Part shown: positions 18,548 to 51,213 of the stretch, piece by piece | Layout of the letters: the number at the start of each line of letters is the position of its first letter | How positions within the stretch are numbered: position 1 is the stretch's first letter | Source of the DNA: Kiritimatiellota bacterium | GTDB taxonomy: Bacteria; Verrucomicrobiota; Kiritimatiellia; RFP12; UBA1067 | Assembly: GCA_009777165.1 (NCBI GenBank) | Contig: WRML01000001.1 | Span: forward strand, 1-51,558 | Length of the DNA: 51,558 bases | Direction of reading: 5' to 3' | Notes under the pieces: model-generated | What the model was told of the DNA's origin: nothing | Seen by the model: only the letters and a program-made list of their open reading frames with translations | Databases searched by the model: none | Translations under genes and position numbers: made by a program

Positions 18548-18570
18548 GATTTTCTCCTTTTCCTTTTGAG

Positions 18571-18675
18571 TTTCCAGTTTCCAGTTTCCAGTTGTCGATG
18601 GCCGTCGATGGCCGTCGAAATTCCTCACTCCTAATTCCTCACTCCTCACTCCTAACTCCTCACTCCTCACTCCTT
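18571..18675. repeat. junction low-complexity element
   Basis: (TTTCCAG)x3, then (GTCGATGGCC)x2, then CTCACTC/CTAATTC/CTAACTC heptamer run. Confidence 0.8.
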
Positions 18676-18680
18676 CCGGC

Positions 18681-20570: not shown

Positions 20571-20694
20571 AAAAAAAACTCCGTTTTTTTTAGTTTTTAG
20601 TTTCGATTCGGCTCGACTCTTCCCGATTCAACTCGATCCGGATCGATAACTAAAAACTTCTTCCTACTTCTCAACTCCTCAACTTCTCAACTTC
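20571..20694. repeat. junction low-complexity hairpin element
   Basis: TAGTTTTTAGTTT arm, CGATTCGGCTCGAC...CGATCCGGATCGAT core, AACTAAAAACT arm, then CTTCTCAAC units. Confidence 0.75.
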
Positions 20695-21069
20695 TTAAAA
20701 CCCCTCCACGCTGTACCTCATGACCAGCGAGCAGCCGATCTGGCGGATGTCGAGATCGCGCAGGGTGGCCTTCGCGAGCAGCGCGGCGCCGTCTATCTCC
20801 AGCGCGCCCTGGCGCGGCGCGGCCGCCTTCATGCCGATGGCGACGGTTTGCGCCTGGGCGACGGTGCCGTAGGTGCGCGTCACGCCGAACGACACGGCGC
20901 AGCTGTCGCACCCCACGTGCTCCGCCTCGATGCCGTCCGCATTGAGGTACTCGTAATCCTCCGTGCCGGGCGTGAGGCGAATGTTGATCCCTTCCGGGCC
21001 GACCGGGTCGCCCTCCGCGCCGGCGGCGCCGCCGGCGCAGAGAATCGCCCCGTTGAGCTTGATCTGCAT
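20695..21069 (-). CDS. hypothetical virion protein
   Basis: ATG 21069 (MQIKLNG) avoids overlap with the upstream lipoprotein gene. Sits in the tail gene block. Confidence 0.4.
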   Translation of the reverse strand: MQIKLNGAILCAGGAAGAEGDPVGPEGINIRLTPGTEDYEYLNADGIEAEHVGCDSCAVSFGVTRTYGTVAQAQTVAIGMKAAAPRQGALEIDGAALLAKATLRDLDIRQIGCSLVMRYSVEGF

Positions 21070-23859: not shown

Positions 23860-23870
23860 AAATTCCTTTT

Positions 23871-23981
23871 AGTTTCCAGTTTCCAGTTTCTAGTTTCCAG
23901 TTGTCGACTGCCATCGACAGCCATCGGCGGCTATCGATTGCCATCGAAATTCCTCACTCCTAATTACTAACTCCTAACTCC
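23871..23981. repeat. junction low-complexity element
   Basis: (AGTTTCC)x4, (GNCATCGA)x5 core, CTCACTCCTAATTACTAACTCCTAACTC. Confidence 0.8.
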
Positions 23982-24871
23982 ACCGAATACAGCCTCCCGT
24001 CGCTCACGCGCCGGTGCGCGACGAACCCGAGCTGGCCGAAGCGGAGCTGGGTGCTGCCCCACTGCAGCGGCCCGGTGACGAGCGCGGCGTTGTGGAGCGT
24101 GACCTCCAGCCCCCCGCCCTGGCCCGTGATCACGAGGTCGCCGCCCGTGCGCGTGGACGCGCCGCGCCCCTTCGACACGGGGAGCGCGGCGAGTATCTCG
24201 CCGAGCCCCTTGCCCAGCGGCGTGCAGGACGCGCGGACGGTCACGTCCGTCAGCAGCAGGTCCACGGTCCCGACGTCGTCGGCCGGGAGCGGCTCGAGGC
24301 CCAGCTCGAAGGTGACGGTCCAGCCGTCAACGGTGTCGGGCAGCGTCAGGCTGCCGAACGCGGCGGTGTACGCGGTGCCGGTGATGGCGTTGGGGTCGGG
24401 GTACCCGGCGGCATACGCCTCCTCCGCGACCTTGCAGAACGCGTCCGGCGCGTCCGGCCTCTTGTTGTCCGCGACGAGCGCGGTGAACTCCGCCTGCCCG
24501 AACGCGGTCTTGACCGCGCTCAGACGCAGGTCCGGGATTTTCGTGAGCGCGGCATTGAGCAGCGTCACCTTCTTGCCGTCCGTGCCGTGGACGGTCAGCG
24601 GCGTGTCGGCCGCGCCGCAGACGCGCGAGCCGATCGCCGGCGCCTGGTGCGGGTAGAGGATGTCCAGTATCGGCTGGCTGATGACGCCGCCCGGCGTGAG
24701 CGTCACGACGCCCCGCTGGTCGGTCTTGATGGTGTCGAGCTTGCCGCTCACGCTGGAGGGGATGTCCTGCGTGGCGCTGTCGATGTTGACGGTGATGCCG
24801 TCCGCGTCGTGGATCACCACGCCGCCGTAACTCAGGGCCCCCGGCCCTGTCAGGATGTTCTTCCGTTCCAT
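23960..24871 (-). CDS. major tail (tube) protein candidate
   Basis: ATG 24871 behind AGGAG; the upstream 51 codons of the ORF track are junction repeats. About 300 aa, placed after the head-tail joining genes. Confidence 0.45.
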   Translation of the reverse strand: MERKNILTGPGALSYGGVVIHDADGITVNIDSATQDIPSSVSGKLDTIKTDQRGVVTLTPGGVISQPILDILYPHQAPAIGSRVCGAADTPLTVHGTDGKKVTLLNAALTKIPDLRLSAVKTAFGQAEFTALVADNKRPDAPDAFCKVAEEAYAAGYPDPNAITGTAYTAAFGSLTLPDTVDGWTVTFELGLEPLPADDVGTVDLLLTDVTVRASCTPLGKGLGEILAALPVSKGRGASTRTGGDLVITGQGGGLEVTLHNAALVTGPLQWGSTQLRFGQLGFVAHRRVSDGRLYSVELGVSN

Positions 24872-26016: not shown

Positions 26017-26036
26017 AAAAAAACTCCGATTTTTTT

Positions 26037-26158
26037 GAGTTAGGAGTTAGGAAGTAGGAAGTAGGAGTTTCGACACCCCCCGACGGCAATCGACTGCCAT
26101 CGAAACCAATAACTCCTAACTCCTACTTCCTAACTCCTAACTCCTAATTCCTAACTCC
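26037..26158. repeat. junction hairpin element
   Basis: Arm GAGTTAGGAGTTAGGAAGTAGGAAGTAGGAG, core TTTCGACACCCCCCGACGGCAATCGACTGCCATCGAAA, inverted arm CTCCTAACTCCTACTTCCTAACTCCTAACTCC. Confidence 0.85.
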
Positions 26159-26907
26159 ATTAACAGGTTCTCGGTGAACTCCGGGCCGAAATCCCGGAGC
26201 GCCCGCGCGATCTCGTCCTCATCCGGCGAGAGCGACTGCTCCCCGGGCAGGGGCGTCCCGGTGATGCCGAGGTCCCCCGCCTCCTCGCGGTCAACGGGCA
26301 CCCACTCGAGGGTCGAGCCGAACGCGAACGGCGGGTAGGGGTTGCCGAGGGTGTCGCCGAACCCGCCGGCGCCGTCGCCGAGCGCCTGCCAGACGGGGGA
26401 GTCCTTCCGCGCCGCCATCTGCGCGCGCGACGCGCCCTCCCAGCCGCAGGCGTCGCCCGCCGCCGCCCAGCGCTCGGCCCAGTCCTGCCGCGGCGCCTTC
26501 GCGCTGCCGACGCGCACCAGCTCCCACGCGGGGTAGGCCTCGAGCGTCCCCGCCGTCTGCGCGTTGACGCTCGCGACCGACTCCGCCATGGTGCGCTGGG
26601 TGTCGAGGATGAGCTGGAGGCGCGTGCGGCTGCCGAGGTCGGTGAGCGAGCCGGGGCTCTCCGGCACGTACCCCGACGCGTCAAGCCACGCCCGGAGCCG
26701 GTCCCGCGCGGTCTCGTCGCTGATCCTCCCCGCCGCCGCGTCCGCGCACACGTCCCGCATCTCCTTCAGGTACGCCGCCTCCGCCGTCCGCGCGCTGAAG
26801 ATGGACGTGCGGCGGATGTCTGCGGAAATCCGCCCGCGCGCCTCCCGCGAGGAGAGGTGCGTGGGCAGGATGGCTTTGTCCATGATGATCTGTGCGGGTG
26901 ACTTCAT
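26137..26907 (-). CDS. head morphogenesis-like protein (function uncertain)
   Basis: 256 aa, ATG behind A8-CGGAG-T8. The C-terminal ELGIRS residues are read from the junction repeat. Confidence 0.4.
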   Translation of the reverse strand: MKSPAQIIMDKAILPTHLSSREARGRISADIRRTSIFSARTAEAAYLKEMRDVCADAAAGRISDETARDRLRAWLDASGYVPESPGSLTDLGSRTRLQLILDTQRTMAESVASVNAQTAGTLEAYPAWELVRVGSAKAPRQDWAERWAAAGDACGWEGASRAQMAARKDSPVWQALGDGAGGFGDTLGNPYPPFAFGSTLEWVPVDREEAGDLGITGTPLPGEQSLSPDEDEIARALRDFGPEFTENLLMELGIRS

Positions 26908-26930
26908 AAAAAAAACTCCGTTTTTTTTTA

Positions 26931-27055
26931 GTTAGGAGTGAGGAGTTAGGAAGTAGGAGTTTCGATGGCAATCGATAGCCGCCGATGGCAATCGATGGCT
27001 GTCGAAACTGGAAACCGGAAACTTCTCCTCATTCCTAACTCCTAACTCCTAATTA
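26931..27055. repeat. junction hairpin element
   Basis: AGGAGT/AGGAAGT arm, (CGATGGC-type)x4 core, CTGGAAAC units, inverted CTCATTCCTAACTCCTAACTCCTAATT arm. Confidence 0.85.
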
Positions 27056-27060
27056 TTTCT

Positions 27061-27486: not shown

Positions 27487-27508
27487 GAAAAAAACTCCGT
27501 TTTTTTTA

Positions 27509-27624
27509 ATTAGGAATTAGGAATTAGAAATTAGGAATGAAAGAAGTTTCCAGTTTCCAGTTTCCAGTTGTCGATGGCTGTCGAAACCAGTAACTCCTAA
27601 CTCCTACTTCCTCATTCCTAACTC
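27509..27624. repeat. junction hairpin element
   Basis: (TTAGGAA)x4 arm, (GTTTCCA)x3, GTCGATGGCTGTCGAAA core, inverted CTCCTAACTCCTACTTCCTCATTCCTAACTCC arm. Confidence 0.85.
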
Positions 27625-28536
27625 CTACGGTTCCGGGGTTGCGGTCTCGACGAGGCGGACCAGCGTCTGCCGCCCGTCCTCGCCCGGGTCGCCGACGGCG
27701 ACGCCGAAGTTGCTCTCGACGGACATCGAGGTCTTGCCGGTCGCGATCTCCGTCGCGACGACGGTGTTGAACGCGAAGCCCGTCGAGCCGTCCTGGCTCG
27801 TCTCGAACACGTCGTAGATGTCCGTGCGCAGGGGCCGCAGGAGGCGGCTCGCGCCGGCCAGCGCGGACGGGTAGGCGATGAAGCCGGGGATCGTCAGGTT
27901 CGGCGCCTCCACGAAGTCGCGGAAGCCGAACAGCCCGGGCAGGTGCCCGCTGAGGATTGCCTCGCGCCCGCCGTACACGCTCGCGTCCAGGTCCACCAGC
28001 AGCGCGGTGAAGTACGCGGGGTTCAGCACCACCACGCAGTCGCCCGGCGCCATGCCGTTGCGCGTCACGAGCGCGCGCAGCGCCCCGACCTTCCCCTTGT
28101 TGAACGCCGCCAGCGTGACGACCTCCTCCTCCGGGAAGTTCGCCGCGGTGACCAGCCCGAACATCGCGTTGACGATCTTCAGGCCCACCGAGCGCGCGTT
28201 CAGCCGCGCCTTGCCCTCCCAGTACGTCGGCTGGAAGGTGGCGACCTGCACGGGGCTGACCGCGAAGCCCGCGATCGGCCGCTGGCTGATGGTCACCTTC
28301 GTGTCCTTCAGCGTCGCGACGGGGCGGATGTAGTTGTTGGCGGCGTCGTCCCACTCCTCCGCTTCGTCGGCCTTCACCAGCGGCACCACGACGGTCTCGC
28401 CGGAATGGTTGATGAATTCGCTGGAGAAGTCCAGCGAGAAGCTGCCGATGCGCTCGAGCTCCAGCTCGATGCACTCGATGAAGCGGCTGGTGTACACCTG
28501 CGCCGCCGTGTTCAGGTCTGTCTGCACAGTATTCAT
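27625..28536 (-). CDS. major capsid protein
   Basis: 303 aa directly downstream of the protease/scaffold gene, with AAGGA upstream. Called by size and position. Confidence 0.6.
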   Translation of the reverse strand: MNTVQTDLNTAAQVYTSRFIECIELELERIGSFSLDFSSEFINHSGETVVVPLVKADEAEEWDDAANNYIRPVATLKDTKVTISQRPIAGFAVSPVQVATFQPTYWEGKARLNARSVGLKIVNAMFGLVTAANFPEEEVVTLAAFNKGKVGALRALVTRNGMAPGDCVVVLNPAYFTALLVDLDASVYGGREAILSGHLPGLFGFRDFVEAPNLTIPGFIAYPSALAGASRLLRPLRTDIYDVFETSQDGSTGFAFNTVVATEIATGKTSMSVESNFGVAVGDPGEDGRQTLVRLVETATPEP

Positions 28537-29623: not shown

Positions 29624-32308
29624 TTAGTTTTCACCACGCGCATGATACTTCCCTCCACTTTTGTACCGTTTAAACTCGCCCTCGGTGATAGACCCGTAAC
29701 TGGTAATCAGCAACCGCCCGTCACGTTTCTTGGTCAGGACCGCGGCCTTGTCGCCGTGAATCAGGTAGAGCTTGCCGCGGTCCTTGTCGTGTTTGTAGGC
29801 CTCGCCCTGCTGCAGGACGCCTGGCAGCCCGCGGACAGCGTCCTTGCCGTGCTTGGCTTGGATGTGGCTCAGCCCGTGGCCGCCTTTGTGTTCGTTTGCG
29901 GGGTTGCCTGGCGCGCCGTAGTCCATCCCGATCCATCCCGTGTCCCGGCGGTACATCGCCTTCGGCTCCGCGCCTTTCCCGGCGGAGAGGATGCCCGTCG
30001 CGACGGATGCCCCGCGCTTCTGGTTCAGCCCCGGGTCCGCCGCCAGCCTCCCCTCGTCCGCCGTGCCGTGGCCGTCGCTTGAGCCCTTGGTCTCATGCTC
30101 GCGCGGGCGCCCCCCCCCTGTCCGGTCGCCGCCGCCCTCGGCGAACGTCCCGTCCGCCTCGCGGTTCGGGTTCCCGTTCATCACGGGCGGCGTTTCCTCC
30201 GGCGCGGCCGCGCCGGCATACGCCCGCGCGGCATCCTCCTCAAAGACCTTCTCCAGCGCGGTCGGCTTCTTGGCGGCCGCCGTGATTGCGCCGTCCAGCT
30301 CCTCCGCCAAGGCGTTGAGAAGTTGAGAAGTTGAGGAATTGAGAAGTTGAGAAGTTCCAACTTCTAAACTTTTCAACTTCTCTACTTCTGTACTTTTCAA
30401 CTTCTCAACTTCTGTACTTTTCGACTTCTCAACTTCTGTACTTTTTAACTTCTCAACTTCCCTCATCTTTTCCATCAGCTCTTTCGCCTTCTCGCGCCAC
30501 GGGGCCATGTCCTCGCTTAAGGCGGCCATGGCGGCCTGTGCCGCGTCCGCGCCGCGGGGGGTGTCCTTGCCCGCCCCGCCCCCCTCCGGGCGTTTTGCAA
30601 CGGGTTCTCGCCGTTTTGCAACGGGGTCGCGGTTGAGAAGTCGAGAAGTTGAGGAATTGAGGAGTCGAGAAGTTGAGGAATTGAGAAGTTGAGAAGTTGA
30701 GGAATCTAAAAGTCGAGAAGTTGAGGAATCTAAAAGTCGAGAAGTTGAGGAATCTAAAAGTCGAGAAGTTGAGGAATTGAGAAGTTGAGAAGTTGAGGAA
30801 TCTAAAAGTCGAGAAGTTGAGGAATCTAAAAGTCGAGAAGTTGAGGAATCTAAAAGTCGAGAAGTTGAGGAATCTAAAAGTCGAGAAGTTGAGGAATCTA
30901 AAAGTTGAGAAGTTGAGGAATTGAGAAGTTGAGAAGTTCCAACTTCTAAACTTTTTAACTTCTCTACTTCTGTACTTTTCAACTTTTCAACTTCTGTGCT
31001 TCTCACCGTCCAGCCGCTGCGCTCGCTCACCTCGGCGGGGTCGACGGCCAGCCCGGCGGCGGCGGCCTTGCCGGCGGTGGCGAAGACCTCGTCGGCGGTG
31101 GGCTGGCTCTCGGTCTCGAAGTCGAACGCCGCGAGGTGGGGGCGGCCGGGGAACGCGGCGTCGAGCAGCCGGTCCGTGACCTGCCGGTTGATCGCCGAGG
31201 CGATGACGGCCGCGTCGCGGCGGACGATGCTCTTCCACGTGTCGGCGTGGACGCCGCTGGCGCCCTGCCCGATGCCCGTGGGCCCGGAGAGGCTGGTGAA
31301 CACCCCCCCCGTCGCCATCAGCACGACCAGCTCCTGCTGGTGCTGGATGAACTGCGCGAACGGGCTCTGGGCCCGCGCGGCGTCCGCGTACTTCACGTCC
31401 GACCCGGCGGGCAGCGCGCCGCTGCCGCCGTCCGCCACCTTCTCCGCCGCGGCCATCCACTCGCGCTGCCGGGACGGGTCCGTCTCCGGCGGCATGATGA
31501 TGATGACGGGCGGGATGCCGTAGCGCTCCACGAACATGCCCCACTTTTTCTCCCCCAGCGCCGCGCGCACGTAGATGCCCAGCGCGGGGTAGTTGACGTG
31601 CCTCGCGCGCACCAGCGAGCAGAGCTCGCCCGGCCCGACCGGCACCACGCGCCCCGTGGCGAACTGCGTCAGCACGCCGTCCGCCTCCGGGTTCCAGTAC
31701 CACTGCCCCGTGCGGGGGTCGCGCACGAAGTTCCAGCTGTCGAAAAGCTCGAAGCGGTCCACGCCGCGCCCGCCGTCGGCCCACACCGGCGCCGTGTGGG
31801 CGAAGCCCCGGAAGAACGCCGTCGCCAGCCGCTCGACCGCCTCCCAGAGGTTCGCGTCCTCGAGGTCCCCGAACACGCCCAGCAGGAAGTCCTCCTGCTC
31901 GCGCGCCAGCCCCTCCAGCCCGTTCAGCCGGGAGGCCTTGCCGGACTTCACGCGGACGGTCCAGTCCAGGTCCGCCATCGCCCCCCCGCGCCGCTCGGTG
32001 CAGATGAAGAGCGTGGGGTCCGCGGCCTCGATCTCGTTGTAGAGCCACTGGAGGCGCACGGTGTTGCCGAGGCGGGCGGCGTCGTAGATCGCCTGGGCCT
32101 CGCGCAGGGTCAGGTTGCGCAGCGGGTTCGTCGCCTCGATCCACGCGGCGGCGTTCCGGTAGGCGCGGCCGGGCCCGCGCTCGAGCGCGAACGGGGCGGC
32201 GCCGCCCCCTTTTGAAAGGGGGGGGCGGTATATGCGCCCCTCCGAAGGATGGGGAAATTCCGCCGGGGGTTTGTTCTTCCGGGGGTCCGGTCTCGGATGC
32301 TTGCTCAC
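29624..32308 (-). CDS. portal protein (DUF935 / Mu gp29-like) with two in-frame repeat blocks and a ~300-aa C-terminal extension
   Basis: GTG 32308 overlaps the terminase stop (GTGA). N-terminal ~445 aa are portal-like (NLTLREAQAIYDAARLGN...). Continuous 894-aa frame through 30314..30996. Confidence 0.7.
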   Translation of the reverse strand: MSKHPRPDPRKNKPPAEFPHPSEGRIYRPPLSKGGGAAPFALERGPGRAYRNAAAWIEATNPLRNLTLREAQAIYDAARLGNTVRLQWLYNEIEAADPTLFICTERRGGAMADLDWTVRVKSGKASRLNGLEGLAREQEDFLLGVFGDLEDANLWEAVERLATAFFRGFAHTAPVWADGGRGVDRFELFDSWNFVRDPRTGQWYWNPEADGVLTQFATGRVVPVGPGELCSLVRARHVNYPALGIYVRAALGEKKWGMFVERYGIPPVIIIMPPETDPSRQREWMAAAEKVADGGSGALPAGSDVKYADAARAQSPFAQFIQHQQELVVLMATGGVFTSLSGPTGIGQGASGVHADTWKSIVRRDAAVIASAINRQVTDRLLDAAFPGRPHLAAFDFETESQPTADEVFATAGKAAAAGLAVDPAEVSERSGWTVRSTEVEKLKSTEVEKLKSLEVGTSQLLNSSTSQLLDSSTSRLLDSSTSRLLDSSTSRLLDSSTSRLLDSSTSQLLNSSTSRLLDSSTSRLLDSSTSRLLDSSTSQLLNSSTSRLLNSSTSRLLNRDPVAKRREPVAKRPEGGGAGKDTPRGADAAQAAMAALSEDMAPWREKAKELMEKMREVEKLKSTEVEKSKSTEVEKLKSTEVEKLKSLEVGTSQLLNSSTSQLLNALAEELDGAITAAAKKPTALEKVFEEDAARAYAGAAAPEETPPVMNGNPNREADGTFAEGGGDRTGGGRPREHETKGSSDGHGTADEGRLAADPGLNQKRGASVATGILSAGKGAEPKAMYRRDTGWIGMDYGAPGNPANEHKGGHGLSHIQAKHGKDAVRGLPGVLQQGEAYKHDKDRGKLYLIHGDKAAVLTKKRDGRLLITSYGSITEGEFKRYKSGGKYHARGEN
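30314..30462. repeat. octamer-repeat hairpin block 1 inside the portal ORF
   Basis: GTTGAGAAGTTGAGAAGTTGAGGAATTGAGAAGTTGAGAAGT turns at TCC into AACTTCTAAACTTTTCAACTTCTC... (about 100 nt). Confidence 0.85.
30632..30996. repeat. 24-nt tandem repeat / hairpin block 2 inside the portal ORF
   Basis: About 12 units of GAGGAATCTAAAAGTCGAGAAGTT and variants. The same GAGAAGTTCCAACTTCTAAAC turn as block 1, then a short inverted arm. Confidence 0.9.
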
Positions 32309-33742: not shown

Positions 33743-34477
33743 TCATAGCCCGAAAATCTCCTTCATCTTCGCGGTGCGCTCCTCGTCGGTCAGCGTCTCG
33801 TTGGCGACGATCTGCTTGGCCTCGGCGAGCCTCCGCTCCGCGGCCTCGAACTTCTCGCGCGCCAGCTTCAGTTGCTCGTCTTTCGTCTCCTGGGCGCGGG
33901 CCTTGAGCTCCAGCTCTTTCGCCTTGGACTGCCCGGCGGCGATGTCCATCGCCATCTGCGTGTAGCGGACGGCGGTCCGGGCGTCGCCCTGGAGCGCGAG
34001 GTCGGCGGCGAGGGACTTGTACGCGTCGATCAGGAGCCGGTCGGTGGAGACGGTGGCGGCGAGCGTGCCGATCTCCTCCTTGGCGATGATGGCCTGCTCG
34101 ACCTTGTGCGCGGACTCCATGCCGCGCATCCGCCCCGCCCAGTTGTAGAGCGATGTCCGCGACGGCTGCGGGACCTTGTGCTCCTCCTCCACGAACTTGG
34201 CGACCGAATACCACGGCGACCGCCGGAACAGGTCGTACACCTGCCACCGCTGGGCGTCCGTCAGACGGGCGTCCCACGCGTCGCACCGCGCCTTCGCCCT
34301 TGACGGGGGCGGGGGGTTCGAGGGATTAGGGGTTAAGGGGTTAAGGGGTTCAGGGGTTAAGGGGTTAAGGGGATTAGGGGTTAAGGATTCGATTGCCGTC
34401 GAGGGCTGTCGATTGCCATCGAGGGCTGTCGAGCCTGAACCCCTGAACCCCTTAACCCCTAACCCTGAACCCCTCAT
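33743..34477 (-). CDS. DNA-binding / small-terminase-like protein (Mu gp27-like)
   Basis: The only in-frame start is ATG 34477 (ATGA overlap with the upstream stop), so ~60 N-terminal codons are read from the repeat hairpin 34311..34474. The body has an HTH-like RWQVYDLFRRSPWYSVAKFV segment and a coiled coil. Confidence 0.45.
   Translation of the reverse strand: MRGSGLGVKGFRGSGSTALDGNRQPSTAIESLTPNPLNPLTPEPLNPLTPNPSNPPPPSRAKARCDAWDARLTDAQRWQVYDLFRRSPWYSVAKFVEEEHKVPQPSRTSLYNWAGRMRGMESAHKVEQAIIAKEEIGTLAATVSTDRLLIDAYKSLAADLALQGDARTAVRYTQMAMDIAAGQSKAKELELKARAQETKDEQLKLAREKFEAAERRLAEAKQIVANETLTDEERTAKMKEIFGL
34311..34474. repeat. hairpin element with GGGGTTAA-type arms, read as coding
   Basis: (GGGGTTAA/GGGGTTCA/GGGGATTA)x8 arm, (TCGATTGCCNTCGAGGGCTG)x2 core, inverted CCTGAACCCCTGAACCCCTTAACCCCTAACCCTGAACCCC arm. 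Confidence 0.85.
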
Positions 34478-35168: not shown

Positions 35169-35305
35169 AACGCCTAACTCCTCATTTCTAATTCCTCATT
35201 CCTAATTAAAAAGGTCCCGGCGCACCCGCAGGAAGACGGGGGCGGATGTGGACGCGCGCGGGTGTGTGGTGTCCGCGCGGCCGGGCGTCCAATGCGGAGT
35301 GCGGA

Positions 35306-35430
35306 GGTAATAGGTGATAGGTAATAGGTGATAGGTGATAAGCGCCTAGCTTGCGAAGCACTGCACTTATTACCTATTACTTCTGACCTATTACTTCTGG
35401 CCTCTGACCTCTGACATCTGACATCTGACT
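35306..35430. repeat. hairpin element in the late control region
   Basis: GGTAATAGGTGATAGGTAATAGGTGATAGGTGATAAG faces CTTATTACCTATTACTTCTGACCTATTAC, followed by (CTGACNT)x4. Confidence 0.8.
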
Positions 35431-35676: not shown

Positions 35677-35750
35677 CGCACTTTTGTTAGAGAGTCAACA
35701 AGAAGTTGCTAGGATTTTTATGAAAACGTTAGGGGAAAGACTGCGGATAG

Positions 35751-35790
35751 GAAACAAAAAAGCCCCCTGCAAGAGGCTTGCAAGGGGGGC
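35751..35790 (-). terminator. rho-independent terminator of the repressor operon
   Basis: The minus strand reads GCCCCCCTTGCAAG-CCT-CTTGCAGGGGGC followed by TTTTTTG. Confidence 0.6.
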
Positions 35791-35849
35791 AGAAAATCCT
35801 TCGTGTCCTTCGTGCCTTTGTGTGAGAAAGAGAGAACGCCTCACGAATA

Positions 35850-36299
35850 TCAAAATCTAACAGGATGTCCTGACAAATAATTTCTTGAAGTACTCAGACA
35901 CCAGCACAATGATAGCAACCTCTGCGACAGTTCCCGTGAATGGGACGCAAATATTACAGCAGACGTATCATCTGTATCATCTTCTTCAATCCTTGTATAA
36001 ATGAGCCTTTTTGCTTCAAATGATTTTAATACTGCTTCAGCTAAAGAATCCTTTTTCCAGCAGAAATTACGTTCATCACTTGGGATAACCATTTCCATGA
36101 TAAGATCGGTCAACTGGTTCTTAGGCGCAACTATACATATTACTGTCATCGACACATATTTTTCACCCTCTAACACAAGTGATTCATGGGCAAACCCGTT
36201 TGAATCCATCGCTTTTTGATAGAGCATCTGGAACGTATAATGCTTAAGCCATTCTGTATATGCGTTTATACATGGTGCAAGTGACATTTTTTCGTTCAT
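35850..36299 (-). CDS. hypothetical 149-aa protein co-transcribed with the repressor (AT-rich)
   Basis: ATG 36299 behind GGAGG. No recognisable motif. GC far below the prophage average. Confidence 0.5.
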   Translation of the reverse strand: MNEKMSLAPCINAYTEWLKHYTFQMLYQKAMDSNGFAHESLVLEGEKYVSMTVICIVAPKNQLTDLIMEMVIPSDERNFCWKKDSLAEAVLKSFEAKRLIYTRIEEDDTDDTSAVIFASHSRELSQRLLSLCWCLSTSRNYLSGHPVRF

Positions 36300-36318
36300 A
36301 ACACACCCTCCAACCTTC

Positions 36319-36522
36319 TTAAACTTCAGTAACCCTGTCAACATCAGCCAATTGCTTCCCGCACCACGGGCAATTTTTCTCTTTGAGACATTGAGTTAGA
36401 CCTCTTGTAACTCCGATAAAATTCTTACAAGAAAGGCATCTCATTTTACTAGGGATGGATGCACCTCTTTTTAGTCTATGAATCAAATCATTTGACCATT
36501 TCACAACAATGTCATCTTTCAT
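36319..36522 (-). CDS. zinc-ribbon protein (67 aa)
   Basis: ATG 36522 behind GAGGAGG. CLSCKNF ... CPWCGK pairs. Confidence 0.45.
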   Translation of the reverse strand: MKDDIVVKWSNDLIHRLKRGASIPSKMRCLSCKNFIGVTRGLTQCLKEKNCPWCGKQLADVDRVTEV

Positions 36523-36901
36523 TTCTTTCGCCTCCTCTATTGCCCTCAACGATTGCTTGAAGCTCATTAGTCCCCTTGAGGATGAAACCAAGAGCCTTAT
36601 TTACACGTGCGAGTTTCTGCTCTGCGCCTTGACACCGTTTCAACAAATCACCGTCATCACCTACTCTGTTTGGTGAATCACTTAATCCGAGTAGCCAATC
36701 TGTGGTTACTCCGCAATGAGTAGCAATCGCTAATAGAGCGTCTGCGTTAGGAGAGTGAACGTCTCTGACATATCTATCAACAGTCGCCTGACGAAGCCCG
36801 ACACGTCTAGCAAATGCACTAACTGACTCGTCTTTGATTAACTCATTAATTCGAGACGAAAAAATTGTTGAGACTTTTACTCTTTTTTGATTTGACACCA
36901 C
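36512..36901 (-). CDS. XRE-family (cI-like) repressor
   Basis: HTH SVSAFARRVGLRQATVDRYVRDVHSPNADALLAIATHCGVTTDWLLG. Divergent from the early operon. Confidence 0.7.
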   Translation of the reverse strand: MVSNQKRVKVSTIFSSRINELIKDESVSAFARRVGLRQATVDRYVRDVHSPNADALLAIATHCGVTTDWLLGLSDSPNRVGDDGDLLKRCQGAEQKLARVNKALGFILKGTNELQAIVEGNRGGERNER

Positions 36902-36987
36902 TACTCCTTTTTGTTTAATATGCTCCTCACGTTACGCGAAATGGTTTGATTGTAACACGAAACGGTTGAGGAATGAAAGGAGAAAGT
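36902..36987. promoter_or_regulatory. divergent early/repressor control region with repeated operator-like sites
   Basis: AT-rich 86 bp between divergent genes. Contains the similar direct repeats GTTACGCGAAATGG and GTAACACGAAACGG. Confidence 0.4.
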
Positions 36988-37173
36988 ATGAGTGCTGGAA
37001 AGGCGAAGGCGAAGAGGGGAAAAAGGAAGTGGAGGGCGGTGTACCGCGGGATCACGGCGCACGCGGCGGCGCTGGGGTGCACGCGGCCGCACCTGTGGAT
37101 GGTGCTGACGGGGCGCAGGCAGAGCAAGAGCCTGACGGCGCGGTACAACGCGCTGGTCAAGGCGCAGGGGTAG
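36988..37173 (+). CDS. Ner/Cro-like small DNA-binding protein
   Basis: ATG 36988 behind AAAGGAG. Basic N-terminus and HTH-like ITAHAAALGCTRPHLWMVLTGRR. Confidence 0.45.
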   Translation: MSAGKAKAKRGKRKWRAVYRGITAHAAALGCTRPHLWMVLTGRRQSKSLTARYNALVKAQG

Positions 37174-37243
37174 GAGGACGGATTTTAATCAGGAATTAGA
37201 AATTAGGAATTAGGAATTAGGAATTAGGAAAGGAAGACAGGAG

Positions 37244-38004: not shown

Positions 38005-38126
38005 GTAGCGGTTAGTGGTTAGTTTACAGTTTTTAGTTTTTAGTTTTTAGAGCAATGCCTCGAAGCGCATCAACTAAAAACTATAAACTAAAAACTCAAA
38101 ACTCAAAAAAAAACGGAGTTTTTTTT
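38005..38126 (+). repeat. 122-nt hairpin leader, copy 1
   Basis: GTAGCGGTTAGTGGTTAGTTTACAGTTTTTAGTTTTTAGTTTTTAG-AGCAATGCCTCGAAGCGCATCAA-CTAAAAAC... ending in A9-CGGAG-T8. The first 78 nt are identical to 40351..40428. Confidence 0.9.
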
Positions 38127-40354: not shown

Positions 40355-40472
40355 CGGTTAGTGGTTAGTTTACAGTTTTTAGTTTTTAGTTTTTAGAGCA
40401 ATGCCTCGAAGCGCATCAACTAAAAACTAAAAACTGTAAACTAAAAACTCAAAAAAAAACGGAGTTTTTCTT
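40351..40472 (+). repeat. 122-nt hairpin leader, copy 2 (upstream of the transposase)
   Basis: Near-identical to 38005..38126. Confidence 0.9.
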
Positions 40473-42521
40473 ATGATGGAGAAGATGGACGGGGGCACGG
40501 CGGCGGTGGCGTTGCCGTTGCTGGACGACACGGGGGCGCGGGCGCGGGCGGCGTGGCTGGAGGCGGCGTGCCGGGAGATACGGGGCGCGGGGCGCGGCAA
40601 GGTGGCGCGGATGCGGGCGATCGCGAGGGCGAACCCGCACAGGGTTGCGTTCGGGACGTTGAAGCGGCTCTACTACAGCTGGCTGGAGCATGGGGAGGAC
40701 GGGCTTGCGGATCTGCGCAAGGCGCGCAGGCCGGGGCGGGAGAACCCGTGGCTGGAGTGCTACAAGGCGTGGTGCGGGCGTCACAACAGGAGCAACCGGG
40801 GGGCGTGGCGGAAGATGCTCGAGGCGTTCCACTCCGGGGCGGAGATGGAGTGCGGGGTCGGGACGTGGCACGGGTGGTGGCGGGCGGAGCACGGCGCGCC
40901 CCCCCCGGCGCATTGCCCGGCGTCGTTCATCCCGAGGTGCGCGCGGTACGCGGGCCTGCAGCGGCTCTACAGGCGGGACCCGGCCTACGGGTTCAACCTC
41001 GCGGCGGAGCGGCTGGGGCGCAAGGCGGCGCACGCGCACATCCTGCCCGTGCTGCGGACGCGCGCGGGGCTGGCGTGCGGGCAGTACGTCGAGTGGGACG
41101 ACGTGCACCTGGACGTCGAGGTGGTGATGCCGGGGCAGGGCGTCATCGCGCGGCCGCAGGCGTTCGTAGGGTATGACGTGGCGAGCGGCATGATGGTGGG
41201 GCACACGCTGAGGCCGCAGTATCCGGAAGAAGTCAAAAAGCCAAGAAATGGAGAAGTCGAGAAGTCCAGGCGGAATAGTCTCAAGGAGCGTGAGTTCAGG
41301 TTTTTGCTGGCGCACTTCCACACGGACGTGGGCTTCCACCCGGGCGGCGTCGTCCACGTGGTGGAGCACGGGACGACGGCGGTGCGCGAGGGTCTGGAGC
41401 TGCGCTACAGGTCCATCCCGAGATACGGGGAGATGATACGCTTCGAGCGCTCGGGCTTCCTTTCGGAGGCAATCCACGCGGGGGTGTTCAAGGGGAACGG
41501 CGGCGGCAACCCCCGCCTGAAGGCGTACTGCGAGCAGGCCCACCGCAACCTGCATTCGGCGCTGGCGATGCTGCCGGGGCAGGTGGGGCAGGACGCGGAT
41601 CACCGTCCGGAGTCGCACGCCGCGCTGGTCAGATACGAGGCGGCGCTGCTGAGGGCCTGCGAGACGCTCCCCCCGGACGCGCTGGACCGCATTGTCCACA
41701 GGCTCATGGACTACGGCGCGTTTGCGCGGAACTTCGCCCTTTTGTGCGAGGCCCTGATGGACAGGGCCGACCACCGGATGGAAGGGTTCGGGGAGAAGCG
41801 CGTGACGCTGTTCCGCCTGGACGCGGCGCAGGAGTGGGTGCCGGTGTCGCGGCTTGACGACGAGCCTGAGGAGAGGCGCGCGGCGATCATCCAGTACCTG
41901 CGCAACAACCCCGAGTGCATCCTGAACAGGCAGATGTCGCGCCGCGAGGCGTGGGACGCGGGCAGGCGCGACCTGATCCGCGTCCCGATGCACGAGCTGC
42001 CGCTCATGCTCGACCCCTCCGACGCGCGGGAGGTCACGGTCAGGGACAACGGCACGTTCGAGTTCACGGACCAGTTCTACCACGGCCCGGACAAGGTCAT
42101 CTTTCATGCGCAGTGCAAGAGCCGCGCGGGGTTCATGCAAGCCCTTGTGCCGGGGTGCAGATATATGCTTTTCACCACGCCGTTCCACCATCAGGGCGTG
42201 ATCGTGGACAAGGCGAGCGGCAACGTCGTCGGCGTGTGCCAGCAGTACAGGCGCGCGCCGCGCTACGACCGCGACGCGATCGTGCGCGCGGCGGGGGCGC
42301 AGAACCATGACTTGGCGCAGAAGCTCCTGCCCATCCGTGGGCGGCGCCAGGCAGAGGCGGAGCAGCGGCTGGCGATGATCGGGCACAACGCGGACGTGCT
42401 GAGGGAGGCGAGGCAAACCCACGGCTTGGACACAAGCCACCCCCTTTCAAAAGGGGGCGATGAGAATTTCTGGGCCGAGGAGGATGAGGGCATCCCCGAG
42501 GCCGTCAGAGAGGCACACTAA
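40473..42521 (+). CDS. MuA-like DDE transposase
   Basis: 682 aa. N-terminal HTH-like TLKRLYYSWLEHGEDGLADL. YVEWDDVHLDVEVV and NPRLKAYCEQAHRNLH catalytic-type blocks. Followed by the MuB-like ATPase. Confidence 0.7.
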   Translation: MMEKMDGGTAAVALPLLDDTGARARAAWLEAACREIRGAGRGKVARMRAIARANPHRVAFGTLKRLYYSWLEHGEDGLADLRKARRPGRENPWLECYKAWCGRHNRSNRGAWRKMLEAFHSGAEMECGVGTWHGWWRAEHGAPPPAHCPASFIPRCARYAGLQRLYRRDPAYGFNLAAERLGRKAAHAHILPVLRTRAGLACGQYVEWDDVHLDVEVVMPGQGVIARPQAFVGYDVASGMMVGHTLRPQYPEEVKKPRNGEVEKSRRNSLKEREFRFLLAHFHTDVGFHPGGVVHVVEHGTTAVREGLELRYRSIPRYGEMIRFERSGFLSEAIHAGVFKGNGGGNPRLKAYCEQAHRNLHSALAMLPGQVGQDADHRPESHAALVRYEAALLRACETLPPDALDRIVHRLMDYGAFARNFALLCEALMDRADHRMEGFGEKRVTLFRLDAAQEWVPVSRLDDEPEERRAAIIQYLRNNPECILNRQMSRREAWDAGRRDLIRVPMHELPLMLDPSDAREVTVRDNGTFEFTDQFYHGPDKVIFHAQCKSRAGFMQALVPGCRYMLFTTPFHHQGVIVDKASGNVVGVCQQYRRAPRYDRDAIVRAAGAQNHDLAQKLLPIRGRRQAEAEQRLAMIGHNADVLREARQTHGLDTSHPLSKGGDENFWAEEDEGIPEAVREAH

Positions 42522-45738: not shown

Positions 45739-45767
45739 TTGCCTTCCGGCGGCGGGTGTGGTATGAT
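45739..45767 (+). promoter_or_regulatory. candidate promoter of the CRISPR array
   Basis: TTGCCT (45739..45744), 17-nt spacer, extended -10 TGgTATGAT (45759..45767), 4 nt upstream of the first (truncated) repeat. Confidence 0.45.
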
Positions 45768-45770
45768 GAT

Positions 45771-46328
45771 GTTTTACAGCTGAAAAGCGGTTGAGTCACA
45801 CCCGCATCAAGGGGGTTCAGGACATCCGTTCAGGGTGTAAGTACAGCCGAAAGGCGGTTGAGTCACACTCGGGTCGCGGAGCAGGACGCGGCGGGCGTAG
45901 GTGTAAGTACAGCCGAAAGGCGGTTGAGTCACACTGGTCCGCCTCATGGATCGCCGCCATTTCGTGGTGTAAGCACAGCCGAAAGGCGGTTGAGTCACAC
46001 CCAACCACGCGTTCGGGATTCCTCGGATGTCGGTGTAAGCACAGCCGAAAGGCGGTTGAGTCACACCCGGAGACCGTCACTTTGAACCAGCGGAAGGGTG
46101 TAAGCACAGCCGAAAGGCGGTTGAGTTACAGCCGCCCGTATGCGTATAACCTACGCCTGACAGGTGTAAGCACAGCCGAAAGGCGGTTGAGTTACAGCGC
46201 CCCCTTACTTTTTGACACAAACAAAAAAGGTGTAAGCACAGCCGAAAGGCGGTTGAGTTACAGCTGGGGTTTTATTGGGTTACCGTCTTGTCGAGGGCAC
46301 GGGCACAGCCGGAAGGCGGTTGACGCGC
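45771..46328 (+). CRISPR. orphan CRISPR array with 8 spacers
   Basis: Seven well-conserved 35-nt repeats GGTGTAAG(T/C)ACAGCCGAAAGGCGGTTGAGT(C/T)ACA(C/G) start at 45834, 45900, 45966, 46032, 46097, 46163 and 46228. Degenerate terminal repeats lie at 45771..45801 and 46295..46328. Unique spacers are 30-32 nt and the period is 65-67 nt. Confidence 0.85.
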
Positions 46329-46508
46329 GTTTTGAAGGACAACAGCCATAACCGCTGACCCATACAAGCCAACGGCAACGCCATTGACCCGTACGCCGCA
46401 TACAATACCACCCCCCCCCGGCATGGTTTTGAAAGCGCGAAAAAGGTTTCGCTCGACTTTCACTGCCGTTCGTGATATGGTTCTTTTTTTAAAATCGGGA
46501 GTTATCAG

Positions 46509-49740: not shown

Positions 49741-51213
49741 TCATAGATTCGCAAGTTTCTCCGACACGAGCTTGCCGACGATCTGGGGGTCGGCCTTGCC
49801 TTGGCTGAGCTTCATCACTTGCCCGACGATAAACCCGGCCGCCGCGGTCTTGCCGGCCTTGTAGCTTTCGACGGATTTCGGGTTCTCCGCGATCACCTTG
49901 TCCACGAACGCCTCCAGCGTCGCGGTGTCGCTGACCTGCCCGAGCCCGCGCGCCTCGACCAGCGCACCCGGCATCCCGCCCTTCTCGAAAATCTCCGCCA
50001 CAAGCTCCTTTGCGGTCGTGCCGTTGATGACGCGCCCGCCCACGAGCGTCACCAGCTCCGCCAGTGCCTCGGGCGTGAACGCGCATTCGGAGATCGCCTT
50101 GCCCGTCTCGGACAGCAGGCGCATGATCTCCGTCATAAACCAGTTCGACACCGCCTTGCCCTGGCCGCACAGCCGCGCCGCCGCCTCGAAGAAATCCGCA
50201 TTCGCCTTCTCGTCCGCCAGCACCCCCGCGTCGTACTCCGGGATGCCGTACTCCCTGACCATGCGCTCGCGCCGCGCGGACGGCAGCTCGGGCAGCGCCG
50301 CGCGCCATGTCTCGATCTGCTCCTCGCTCAGCACGACCGGCACGAGGTCCGGGTCCGGGAAGTAGCGGTAGTCATGCGCGTTCTCCTTAGTGCGCATGGA
50401 CTGCGTCTCTCCGGCGTCCGGGTCCCACCGCCGTGTCTCCTGCACGAGCCTGCCGCCGTGCGTCAGCGCATGGATCTGCCGCGCGATCTCATACTCCAGC
50501 GCCGCGTCAATCCCCTTGAACGTGTTCATGTTCTTGATCTCGACGCGCGTGCCGAGTTTCTCCTGACCCTCCGGGCGGATGCTCACGTTCACGTCCGAGC
50601 GCATCTGGCCCTTCTCCATGTCGCAATCGCTCACGCCCGCATAAATCAAAATCTGCCGCAACGTGTGCAGGTACGCCATCACCTCCTCGCGCGACGACAT
50701 ATCCGGCTCCGTCACGATCTCGATCATCGGCATGCACCCCCGGTTGAAGTCCACGCCGCTGAACCGCGCGTAATGGTTGATCTTCGCCGCGTCCTCCTCC
50801 AGGTGGATGTGGTGGATACGGATGCGTTTCACGCTATGATTCCTAACGCCTAACGCCTCATTCCTAATTCCTAATTCCTCATTCCTAATTTCAACCCCCC
50901 CCCCCACGCAGAACGGGCGCAGGCTCTGGGTGATCTGGTAATTCTTCGGGATGTCCGGGTAGAAATAGCTCTTCCGGTCGAACGTGCTGTAGCGGCTGAT
51001 CTCGCACCCCAGCATCATCCCCCCCGTGACCGCCAGCCGCACCGCCTCGCGGTTCACCACCGGCAGCGTCCCCGGGAACCCGAGGCACCCCGGGCAAGTG
51101 TTCGCGTTCGCCTCCGCCCCGAACGCCGTGCTGCACCCGCACCACAGCTTGCTCTTCACCTTCAGGTGGACATGCGTCTCCAGCCCGACGGTCACCAAAT
51201 ACTTGCTCATCAC
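49741..51213 (-). CDS. gatB: Asp/Glu-tRNA(Asn/Gln) amidotransferase subunit B, with an in-frame repeat insert
   Basis: VTVGLETHVHL, HLEEDAAK and YRYFPDPDL motifs. Extra IRNEELGIRNEALGVRN segment encoded by 50839..50891. Confidence 0.9.
   Translation of the reverse strand: MMSKYLVTVGLETHVHLKVKSKLWCGCSTAFGAEANANTCPGCLGFPGTLPVVNREAVRLAVTGGMMLGCEISRYSTFDRKSYFYPDIPKNYQITQSLRPFCVGGGVEIRNEELGIRNEALGVRNHSVKRIRIHHIHLEEDAAKINHYARFSGVDFNRGCMPMIEIVTEPDMSSREEVMAYLHTLRQILIYAGVSDCDMEKGQMRSDVNVSIRPEGQEKLGTRVEIKNMNTFKGIDAALEYEIARQIHALTHGGRLVQETRRWDPDAGETQSMRTKENAHDYRYFPDPDLVPVVLSEEQIETWRAALPELPSARRERMVREYGIPEYDAGVLADEKANADFFEAAARLCGQGKAVSNWFMTEIMRLLSETGKAISECAFTPEALAELVTLVGGRVINGTTAKELVAEIFEKGGMPGALVEARGLGQVSDTATLEAFVDKVIAENPKSVESYKAGKTAAAGFIVGQVMKLSQGKADPQIVGKLVSEKLANL
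50839..50891. repeat. heptamer repeat insert inside gatB
   Basis: ATTCCTAACGCCTAACGCCTCATTCCTAATTCCTAATTCCTCATTCCTAATT, the same unit family as the prophage junction arms. Followed by C11 (50895..50905). Confidence 0.85.

Follow-up and report, generated by a model that had tools for sequence, protein, structure and literature searches.

Composite repeat elements at bacterial operon junctions, among them BOX (A-Bn-C) of pneumococci, BIME/REP of enterobacteria, Correia of Neisseria and MIRU of mycobacteria, combine complementary outer modules with variable internal tandem modules; the modules are fixed sequences of tens of bases, and roles in mRNA stability, processing and translational coupling have been proposed for them. 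Palindromes that occur both between genes and in frame within them are known from Rickettsia, where the Rickettsia palindromic elements (RPEs), about 100-150 bp long and recognizable by a family consensus, are dispersed in many copies (Ogata et al. 2000/2002, as summarized in PMC10969869). Arrays of shorter units have been described as well: the GGGAATC heptamers of Xanthomonas and the GGGGAYT heptamers of Nostoc/Anabaena occur in arrays of at least 4 units that are 68-93% intergenic, with 7-11% intragenic in xanthomonads, and a Xanthomonas genome holds about 70 pairs that converge in inverted orientation (Rehm et al. 2015, PMC4692102). These arrays are found near the end of the upstream open reading frame (ORF), their pairs are capable of forming stem-loops, and their length varies between close relatives while their position is kept (PMC4692102). 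A short tandemly repeated repetitive (STRR) sequence is tolerated within a functional RNase P RNA gene (Vioque 1997, as cited in PMC2858038), and the tandem repeats of Borgs are direct repeats that lack an inverted partner and whose amino-acid sequences have been described as strongly selected (Schoelmerich et al. 2023, PMC9879509). Here we analyzed the whole 51.6-kb contig (WRML01000001.1; hereafter the window) of a metagenome-assembled genome of Kiritimatiellota, in which the portal gene of a Mu-like transposable prophage carries two repeat blocks in frame. These blocks are probably repeat hairpins that are shaped at the DNA level, expanded by slippage and tolerated within the protein-coding sequence.

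The 894-amino-acid (aa) ORF that contains the blocks encodes a genuine Mu-type portal. It matches Pfam Portal_Mu (DUF935, PF06074) over aa 88-432 (E 2.7e-35, 122.8 bits, model positions 2-335/336), it is 100% identical to an NCBI entry named 'DUF935 family protein [Kiritimatiellaeota bacterium]', and its neighbours match Terminase_6N/6C (directly upstream) and Mu-like_Pro (downstream). The best Foldseek matches of its AlphaFold2 (AF2) model were the JBD30 portal (E 1.3e-12) and the Mu portal, and a search with the sequence of the ORF also reached both of these structures.

The blocks are AT-rich and lie within 30314-31004, the rest of the gene having roughly 70% G+C (Table 1). Tandem Repeats Finder (TRF) detected 8-mers in block 1 (x5.4 at 30314-30356 and x12.9 at 30358-30460, the latter also with a 24-nt period, x4.3), and in block 2 a 24-nt unit (x12.5 with 93% identity at 30638-30938, score 483) as well as 8-mers (x7 at 30940-30995). 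The 24-nt unit consists of three octamers, GAGAAGTT, GAGGAATC and TAAAAGTC, and the units show a higher-order pattern of variants, not that of a collapsed perfect repeat. The 15-mer GAGAAGTTGAGGAAT, allowing up to 2 mismatches, occurs 19 times versus 0.04 expected, with 18 of these occurrences in the blocks and a single intergenic one (20674-20688). Each block folds back on itself: read on the mRNA, block 1 runs from a GAGAAGUU-type arm (30358-30460) through a turn into a short AACUUCUC-type arm (30314-30356), and block 2 runs from a short GAGAAGUU-type arm (30940-31004, 'STEVEKLK') through a turn into a long AACUUCUC-type arm (30632-30938, 'STSRLLDS'). The window contains exactly two copies of the turn, GAGAAGTTCCAACTTCTAAAC (at 30349 and 30931). 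They sit within a shared 103-nt core in which a GAGAAGTT-type run passes through a CC turn into a AACTTCTC-type run, and the two copies of this core are nearly identical direct repeats of one another. The grown arm differs by block, being the GAGAAGUU arm in block 1 (about 103 nt) and the AACUUCUC arm in block 2 (about 307 nt). We favor the view that the two blocks are copies of one fold-back element, and that this element is a coding version of the intergenic elements described below. The octamers, the 24-nt unit and the identical turn had all been noted in the original prediction, TRF and the turn positions confirmed them, and both blocks were present where they had been placed; because the 103-nt core runs to 31004, block 2 extends ~8 nt beyond the end at 30996 that had been given there, to about 31004. 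In RNA folding, the block 1 hairpin had a z-score of -5.4 and the 711-nt region 30300-31010 folded at -256 kcal/mol (z -9.45), and in this fold the long arms of the two blocks are predicted to pair with each other, bridging the coding segment of the first C-terminal helix.

The portal frame is free of stops in both blocks and is the only one of the six frames that is open: in the other two sense frames, block 2 has 12 stops and 1 stop and block 1 has 5 and 3, and all three antisense frames are closed through the blocks. Both blocks are read in the same phase, as (STSRLLDS)n and (STEVEKLK)n. In the GAGAAGUU orientation, the junction between two octamers (GTT/GA) makes a TGA, and since an 8-nt period is not divisible by 3, the junctions hit all three frames in turn; every third junction, the one in frame 0, reads GTA/CAG instead of GTT/GAG. 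Growth has occurred in steps of 24 nt (three octamers, eight codons), so that changes in length never shift the frame. Selection on a selfish or structural DNA repeat is visible at this locus, in that the unit that would give an in-frame stop alone was changed and growth was limited to 24-nt steps. The codons of the blocks are foreign to the gene: the G+C content at third codon positions (GC3) is high in the portal core (0.97) and the C-terminus (0.85) and low in block 2 (0.19) and block 1 (0.32), and the commonest block codons, ACT, TCT and CGA, are used at 0.5 per 1000 in six late genes. Taken together, the sequence of the blocks appears to be set at the nucleotide level, with the open frame as the sole visible constraint at the level of the protein. 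The frame had been predicted to stay open despite the TGA of the inverted-arm orientation, to be read as STSRLLDS and STEVEKLK repeats, and to join unique portal-like sequence on both sides of the blocks; the six-frame check and the translation agreed with the first two of these claims, and the flanks proved homologous to other portals.

An open frame of this kind could also be produced by an artefact or by decay, namely by misassembly or mis-sizing of the arrays from short reads, or by a defective prophage with a portal pseudogene whose frame is open through periodicity. We consider this very improbable. The protein is represented by one assembly and one contig, short-read assembly has difficulty with arrays of 300 nt, and because the unit is 24 nt long, openness over 12 copies amounts to one event rather than twelve. 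However, there are two separate blocks, each containing both orientations, and both are open in the frame of the gene alone; the variant pattern among the units is of higher order; conservation and high GC3 continue through the 229 aa downstream of the blocks; the late genes of the prophage all look intact; and like in-frame arrays occur in related portals from independent assemblies (ENA, JGI and NCBI).

Comparison with homologous portals, which the original prediction had called for, showed that both blocks are insertions. Lengths of about 690-790 aa prevail among the top 120 homologues; the portal in the window is about 110-200 aa longer than its relatives, and the two blocks account for about 172 aa of this. 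Two alignments (A1/A2) place gaps or hypervariable linkers of the homologues opposite both blocks. Block 2 directly follows the last conserved motif of the core (ERSGWTVR here, ERTGYALEPA in relatives), at a position termed here site A, where relatives have a hypervariable linker of 20-90 aa, and block 1 lies at site B, where most relatives have ADPSPE alone. The unique segment between the blocks is homologous to LQGLAEALQADCAPLAEALQSLL in relatives. A portal family ending ahead of the blocks, which would have spoken against in-frame insertion, was not what we found, as even shorter homologues (510-540 aa) that lack the C-terminal domain keep both helices flanking block 1 and end just after them. 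The possibility of a separate gene downstream of the blocks was rejected, since there is no stop, no conserved start, and the fusion is typical of the family.

We then placed the blocks on a predicted structure (AF2 with 36 sequences; the model as a whole is of low confidence, with a predicted template modelling score of 0.40). Block 2 was modelled as coil, with a predicted local distance difference test (pLDDT) of 26-32. Block 1 fell within and between helices 586-630 and 640-697 (pLDDT 50-78), the first of which begins in the unique segment ahead of the block, and extended a helical hairpin outside the portal core; the C-terminal domain was predicted with a pLDDT of ~87-92 (aa 745-890). Mu-type portals beyond the core are not well ordered, as the matched chains of the solved Mu and JBD30 portals hold about 370-405 of 512-526 residues. 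The inserts are therefore placed by the model, as the original prediction had proposed to examine, one in a disordered linker and the other in a helical hairpin of the C-terminal region, positions at which the fold is predicted to tolerate them. If the blocks are translated, the portal, which is among the most constrained of virion proteins, carries about 172 residues set by DNA-level repeat dynamics, and these residues mark the structurally free parts of Mu-type portals. We know of no BOX, BIME, Correia or MIRU element with arms of 7/8-nt units, nor of one documented as a 172-residue in-frame insertion in a structural protein of the virion. For annotation, such blocks could be taken for the end of a gene, a frameshift or an error of assembly.

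Elements of the same kind recur at the same sites in related portals, for which we examined the DNA of three loci (L002, L003/L004 and L071) and compared 59 homologues (P0002-P0060). The portals of L002, L004 and L071 hold in-frame elements composed of a 7/8-mer array (x~4.3), small GC hairpins in a spacer of 57-440 nt, and an inverted 7/8-mer array (x~4.3), with units such as GAATCGY, ACCATTT, GGAGGCTT and CCAAGCCT. They occupy four positions: the N-terminus, site A, site B, and a site C just before the C-terminal domain. The L004 portal contains two complete in-frame elements (hairpin z -7.4 and -6.8), and among the 59 homologues element peptides (HLPFTNYHLP, GLEDWRLGGLA and ANGESRIANR...DSRFTIYDSP) are present or absent in portals that are otherwise very similar. 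At site A (L071:11225-11368, L004:11250-11364, L002:11300-11420) the central hairpin GGGGCGTGGGGCARAGCCCCACCC is common to the relatives while the arms are unrelated, with GGAGGCTT/CCAAACTT 8-mers in one relative versus GAATCGY/ACGATTC 7-mers in another, so that the arms appear to be exchangeable modules around a conserved core. A duplicated hairpin motif, GTTGCAAAAC (CCGTTGCAAAACGG-like), adjoins block 2 in the window (30575-30631, portal aa ~562-575). This hairpin is read as PVAKR here and in P0030, and as PLQN in P0028 and P0029; being read in different frames in different portals, it is conserved at the DNA level without conservation of the protein. In their host context, arrays were absent from the 7-kb flank of L003/L004 and several were found around L071.

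At site C, the heptamer arms (ANGESRIANR and DSRFTIYDSP) lie exactly at the junction at which differing C-terminal nuclease-like domains are attached, and full, left-only, right-only and empty variants of the site occur among P0002-P0060. The repeat arms may be linked to the swapping of cargo domains at this site. In addition, the heptamer of L004 (G[C/T]GAATC) is one base off the Xanthomonas GGGAATC and has the same typical length of ~4 units, or 26-30 nt (PMC4692102), a likeness that may be coincidence or may have a common cause.

The repeats share several properties with those of Borgs, in being pervasive and fast-evolving, found both between genes and within ORFs, built within ORFs of a unit divisible by three, and giving rise to low-complexity, mostly disordered protein segments. 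Enrichment in the mobile element relative to its host may be a further likeness, although the host gene gatB has an array and several occur in the host context of L071. By analogy, the repeats may be kept for a role of the protein, as adaptive low-complexity tethers that lengthen the link between the portal ring, the C-terminal helices and the nuclease cargo inside the capsid, or that supply Ser/Thr-rich sites for modification or cleavage. The near-perfect amino-acid repeats and the divisibility of the unit by three are consistent with such a role, as are the predicted disorder of block 2, the helix-compatible sequence of block 1, which is continuous with the flanking helices, the strong variation in length of the same linker positions across the family, and the density of arrays, in which the prophage exceeds its host flanks ~10x and L003/L004 behave likewise (cf. 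Borgs, PMC9879509). It is doubtful, however, that selection on the peptide would leave codon usage so extreme and unadapted, and in relatives the same DNA motifs are read in different frames (as for GTTGCAAAAC) and elements at one and the same site encode unrelated peptides. Moreover, the arrays fold back in two orientations, unlike those of Borgs, and inverted arms are meaningless for a protein. We therefore regard a protein role as improbable.

A plausible course of events under the DNA-level reading would begin with one copy that either originated within the variable C-terminal part of the portal gene or was copied there, and that was then duplicated to a second tolerant site, the blocks now occupying the pair of positions in this region that are the most permissive. 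Each copy would have been lengthened by replication slippage in frame-neutral, nearly neutral 24-nt steps, with selection removing the variants that placed a stop in the portal frame. The product of block 2 would be a roughly 122-residue disordered Ser/Thr/Leu-rich tether leading from the portal core to the C-terminal helices, and that of block 1 a roughly 50-residue Glu/Lys-rich extension of the helical hairpin. Intrastrand template switching is known to mirror one arm of a quasipalindrome onto the other in the process of quasipalindrome correction. A similar mirroring here would explain both the inverted-copy arms and the differences in arms from locus to locus around a conserved centre.

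The portal blocks belong to a wider class of elements with the order 7/8-mer array, core, inverted array, and this class fills most of the late-gene junctions of the prophage (Table 1). On the mRNA, a junction element begins at or inside the stop codon of the upstream gene, with TAGGAGT/TAGGAAT-type 7-mers (x4-7), a GGAAACT-type inner arm and a core of TCGA-centred 10-mers, and continues through the inverted inner arm and CTCCTAA-type 7-mers into an A-tract-CGGAG-T-tract-ATG, the arms being paired. Most of the ten window elements that were tested fold into stems of 25-40 bp (z -5.7 to -10.9), including the example in Table 1 (-58 kcal/mol, z -8.1); two of the ten gave only modest hairpins (z -3.4 and -3.6), and another, whose arms are not complementary, was unfolded (z 0.08). 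The initiation motif A-tract-CGGAG-T-tract-ATG occurs in six copies versus 0 expected, directly 3' of junction elements, and its A and T tracts could pair so as to present the Shine-Dalgarno sequence in a loop. In the early region, two near-identical TTAGTTT/AACTAAA hairpin elements (38015-38112 and 40361-40458, plus strand) lie 2.3 kb apart, each followed by an A-tract-CGGAG.

The original prediction held that the portal blocks use the same unit vocabulary as the junction elements. The vocabularies are related, the portal octamers being heptamers with one base added (AGGAATT becoming GAGGAATT), but they are not identical, since the portal is built of 8-mers in a 24-nt superunit and the junctions mostly of 7-mers; a single intergenic array, at 20666-20695, uses the portal octamer ACTTCTCA. 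A stop codon on the sense strand is contained in 21/31 array units, versus 13.6 +/- 2.1 after letter shuffling, a figure that comes from 31 non-independent arrays (18.5-40.5 kb) and that we treat as a lead. The inner arms (GGAAACT) contain no stop, and a stop in every unit is therefore not universal. Several ORFs end a few codons into an array (...ELGIRS* and ...ELGVSN*).

At the DNA level, the closest match to these elements is provided by the heptameric arrays of Xanthomonas and Nostoc. The junction elements of the window and of its relatives likewise consist of 7-nt units in about 4-7 copies, with paired arms at the upstream stop, and the portal blocks would correspond to the intragenic minority. 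The differences are nevertheless considerable. The Xanthomonas and Nostoc arrays consist of G-tract units and have been studied for quadruplex formation, have one dominant unit per genome and are a feature of the host chromosome, whereas here many types of unit occur within one prophage, mostly AT-rich and Shine-Dalgarno-like (AGGAGTT). Units such as GAGAAGTT, GAGGAATT and AGGAGTT contain no G runs, and the only array with G4 tracts is that at 34328-34386 (GGGGTTAA). The junction elements also have nested inner arms and a TCGA 10-mer core, and arrays are denser in the prophage, with about 38 TRF rows of 7/8-mers in its 30 kb versus 3 in 21 kb of host DNA, a roughly tenfold difference in density. 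The portal blocks depart further from tandem 7-nt arrays, as they are made of 8-mers in 24-nt in-frame superunits and reach 365 nt. With BOX, BIME and MIRU elements the junction elements share a modular design at operon junctions.

Because the junction elements sit directly upstream of A-tract-CGGAG-T-tract-ATG, they may have a role in expression, and by the same token the portal blocks, which have the same architecture, may be functional cis-elements that throttle or split portal expression through hairpins and rare codons. Such elements would set the ratio of the full-length, nuclease-bearing portal to shorter products, by ribosome stalling, by RNase cleavage of duplexes of roughly 40-100 bp, or by a +1 shift at nine CUU UUA G sites of block 2 that leads to UAG. 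The very stable fold of 30300-31010, in which the long arms of both blocks are paired, is in line with this possibility, as are the 93% identity of the repeats and the 96% identity of the two cores, the rare UUA and CGA codons of the blocks, and the 12 stops in the +1 frame of block 2, each of which comes right after CUU U. Nonetheless, read-through is required, because frame 0 is free of stops and the downstream domain is conserved with high GC3. Relatives have no element, half an element or quite different elements at these sites, and the repeat elements matched no Rfam family at gathering thresholds, the sole match in the window being the tRNA. The frameshift idea, for its part, is drawn solely from a likeness to prfB, whose site resembles CUU UUA G and has an upstream Shine-Dalgarno stimulator that is absent here. 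We thus consider a cis-regulatory function of the blocks unlikely, albeit slightly less so than a role of the encoded peptide.

Several points count against DNA-level repeats that spread and grew as tolerated passengers of the portal. The exact element was not found beyond its two portal copies in the window or in the viral, genome and metagenome collections, and by inspection, which had no empty site for a strict comparison, no target-site duplication was seen at the blocks or at the in-gene elements of relatives. The closest portal relative in the collections searched is about 58% identical, and viral and metagenome contigs contained nothing closer to the portal core than about 50-53%; as there is no close relative, an empty site, the exact boundaries of insertion and variation in copy number are not observable. 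That the repeats, and likewise the two cores, are nearly identical could instead reflect selection for a function of the RNA or DNA. Translation of the blocks, which is inferred, should be hampered by the -256 kcal/mol fold (z -9.5) and by 172 rare codons, which also makes neutrality doubtful. Finally, the contig comes from a single metagenome assembly, and the copy number may be wrong.

Scans for the turn as a 17-mer gave 12 matches in viral contigs and 54 in genome contigs, about the number expected by chance for a 17-mer in 596 Gb; these were rejected as further copies, being singletons in unrelated taxa with no GAGAAGTT arrays nearby. The block-derived 24-mer GAGAAGTTGAGGAATTGAGAAGTT had zero matches in viral contigs, and the main 24-nt repeat unit had zero matches in metagenome contigs. 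A protein search with the block peptides yielded a sole match, in the unrelated contig L078: a 90-aa ORF that covers an intergenic array and is probably spurious. There, at 740-915, beside a UDP-glucose dehydrogenase gene, GATGGAA (x~8) is followed by CTCCTCGA/CTTCTCGA (x~14), the ORF containing STSRLLDS-like repeats; similar arrays of 7-mers plus 8-mers thus exist in other bacteria. A search with the peptide of AGGAGTT arrays returned 14 tiny ORFs (43-83 aa), probably mis-called intergenic arrays, and as all matches were tiny ORFs, large in-frame arrays in real proteins appear to be rare in the database.

The original prediction had compared the blocks to RPEs, and this comparison stood in part. 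As in Rickettsia, palindromic repeats lie both between and inside genes, the ORF is kept open in a fixed frame, the positions are compatible with the fold in the model, and a housekeeping gene (gatB, below) has been struck. The elements are nevertheless not members of the RPE family: their arms are variable-length 7/8-nt arrays, enlarged locally and unlike palindromes of fixed length, the exact element has two copies in one gene instead of many dispersed ones, the phylum is Kiritimatiellota and not that of Rickettsia, and they are termed unrelated in sequence without a direct comparison to the RPE consensus. The inverted arms also recall miniature inverted-repeat transposable elements, from which the blocks differ in having neither a visible target-site duplication nor dispersed identical copies. 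For these same reasons, the limitation to two portal copies and the lack of a visible duplication, selfish transposition of the blocks is an analogy to known mobile palindromes rather than a demonstrated mobility.

We found no paper on such elements in Kiritimatiellota or in phage portals in a literature search, and the junction elements point to an unstudied class of nested short-repeat hairpins at most late-gene junctions of a phage group, a class that may influence mRNA processing, the insulation of translation and the exchange of modules. The wider system of junction elements is the more interesting lead than the portal blocks themselves. A far-reaching version of it, which we hold to be about as unlikely as the cis-regulatory one, sees in the portal blocks one edge of a hitherto undescribed system of junction elements throughout the lineage of Kiritimatiellota and their Mu-like phages, in which short tandem-repeat arms are actively generated and rewritten around small conserved hairpins at the boundaries of genes and domains. 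If so, the arms would be mRNA hairpins just upstream of a fixed initiation region and would insulate translation in both directions, because most outer-arm units carry a stop and the 7/8-nt period places stops in all three frames. Such a system would call for a dedicated mechanism of arm writing or mirroring (template switching, gene conversion or a templated polymerase), and the copies within ORFs would be frame-tamed derivatives.

In-frame arrays also occur in other genes of the window. The element at 34313-34474, with a GGGGTTAA-type 8-mer arm, a TCGA 10-mer core and an inverted arm, is open in frame in ORF 33743..34477 (minus strand), downstream of an ATG at 34477 that has a GGAGG Shine-Dalgarno sequence; the next in-frame start is 79 codons further on, and the element apparently supplies the first ~55 residues of the protein (MRGSGLGVKGF...LNPLTPEPLNPL...). 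The host gene gatB (49741..51213, minus strand) contains an in-frame heptamer array, ATTCCTA x7.4 at 50839-50890, which makes a loop 12-13 residues longer (EELGIRNEALGV) than in the GatB structures 3h0l_B and 3al0_B. In this array TGAGGAA replaces TTAGGAA exactly where a TAG would be in frame, a period-3 avoidance of stops as in the portal. An array of the 8-mer AAGAAGTC (x5, 41227-41266) is in frame in the ORF of the MuA-like transposase (40473..42521, plus strand), where the match to phage transposases (aa 37-245) has just ended, possibly at a domain boundary.

Table 1. Coordinates in the window of the portal gene, its repeat blocks and the junction elements of the prophage.
Feature	Position	Strand	Basis and remarks
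Portal-PBECR1-like fusion ORF, 894 aa	29624..32308	-	GTG start overlaps terminase stop; ORF list
Portal core, aa 1-437, GC3 0.97	30998..32308	-	Alignments; AF2 helices and strands aa 48-431; codon statistics
Block 2, aa ~438-559	30632..31004	-	TRF, frames, unit parse; insertion at site A directly after portal core
Unique portal segment, aa 560-615, GC 0.70	30463..30631	-	Linker with duplicated PVAKR hairpin motif, then first C-terminal helix (AMAALSEDMAPWREKAKELMEKM)
Block 1, aa ~616-665	30314..30462	-	TRF, frames; insertion at site B, between two C-terminal helices
Second C-terminal helix, linker and folded PBECR1-like domain, aa 666-894, GC3 0.85	29624..30313	-	Conserved to last residue (...GGxYHxKGEN)
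Shared 103-nt core, copy 1	30320..30422	.	Turn 30349-30369; 99/103 identical to copy 2 (local alignment)
Shared 103-nt core, copy 2	30902..31004	.	Turn 30931-30951; direct repeat of copy 1
Example junction element	26925..27056	-	TAGGAGT-type 7-mers, GGAAACT inner arm, TCGA 10-mer core, CTCCTAA-type 7-mers, then A-tract-CGGAG-T-tract-ATG
Similar elements	18565-18678, 20583-20700, 23866-23985, 26032-26162, 27503-27630		TRF / folding
Similar elements, continued	34313-34474, 35300-35398, 38015-38112, 40361-40458		TRF / folding
Initiation motif	20573-20590, 26018-26035, 26910-26927, 27489-27506	-	
Initiation motif	38107-38124, 40453-40470	+	
Intergenic array with portal octamer ACTTCTCA x3.8	20666..20695	.	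TRF; GAGAAGTTGAGGAAT pattern match 20674-20688

The prophage spans about 14.6-45 kb of the window. Its late genes, on the minus strand, encode the large terminase, the portal, the Mu-like protease I and the capsid, and a MuA-like transposase and a MuB/TniB-like ATPase are encoded on the plus strand; the flanks of the contig hold host genes (tRNA, SDR, DeoC, FGGY kinase and GatB). The C-terminal domain of the portal matches PBECR1 (PF18809) weakly at aa 784-842 (18.6 bits, below the Pfam gathering cut-off of 27.6). Many homologues with alignable C-termini have a precomputed PF18809 match, and PF18809 or PF18810 is present in many of the top 120 portal homologues, so that a portal with a C-terminal nuclease-like domain appears to be an architecture typical of the family. 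On phage head proteins, PBECR/toxin C-terminal cargo of this type (PF18809/PF18810) is known mainly from MuF fusions. The portal resembles these in being a protein of the head interior with a swappable C-terminal nuclease-like domain behind a variable linker, the domains of relatives differing after the same junction, but here the carrier is the portal itself; this likeness concerns the gene that hosts the blocks and not the blocks.

In the relatives, terminase and portal occur together with three small upstream genes (L071 7584-12124, L003/L004 7581-12256 and L002 7404-12325), in clusters with no obvious capsid or tail genes nearby. The clusters adjoin host genes or CRISPR-Cas loci, of type I-E in L071 and of Cas9 type, with an array of ~87 repeats, in L002, and they may be remnants or satellite-like islands. 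In the window, a CRISPR-like array (45759-46330) with nine ~35-nt repeats (GGTGTAAGCACAGCCGAAAGGCGGTTGAGTCACAC) at a spacing of 65-67 nt lies between the end of the prophage and the host genes; the contig contains no cas genes. A low-GC island (35700-37200; 0.37-0.44) separates the divergent late and early modules of the prophage, and it is bordered by arrays of the 7-mers AGGTGAT, TCTGACC, CAATTGA and AATTAGG.

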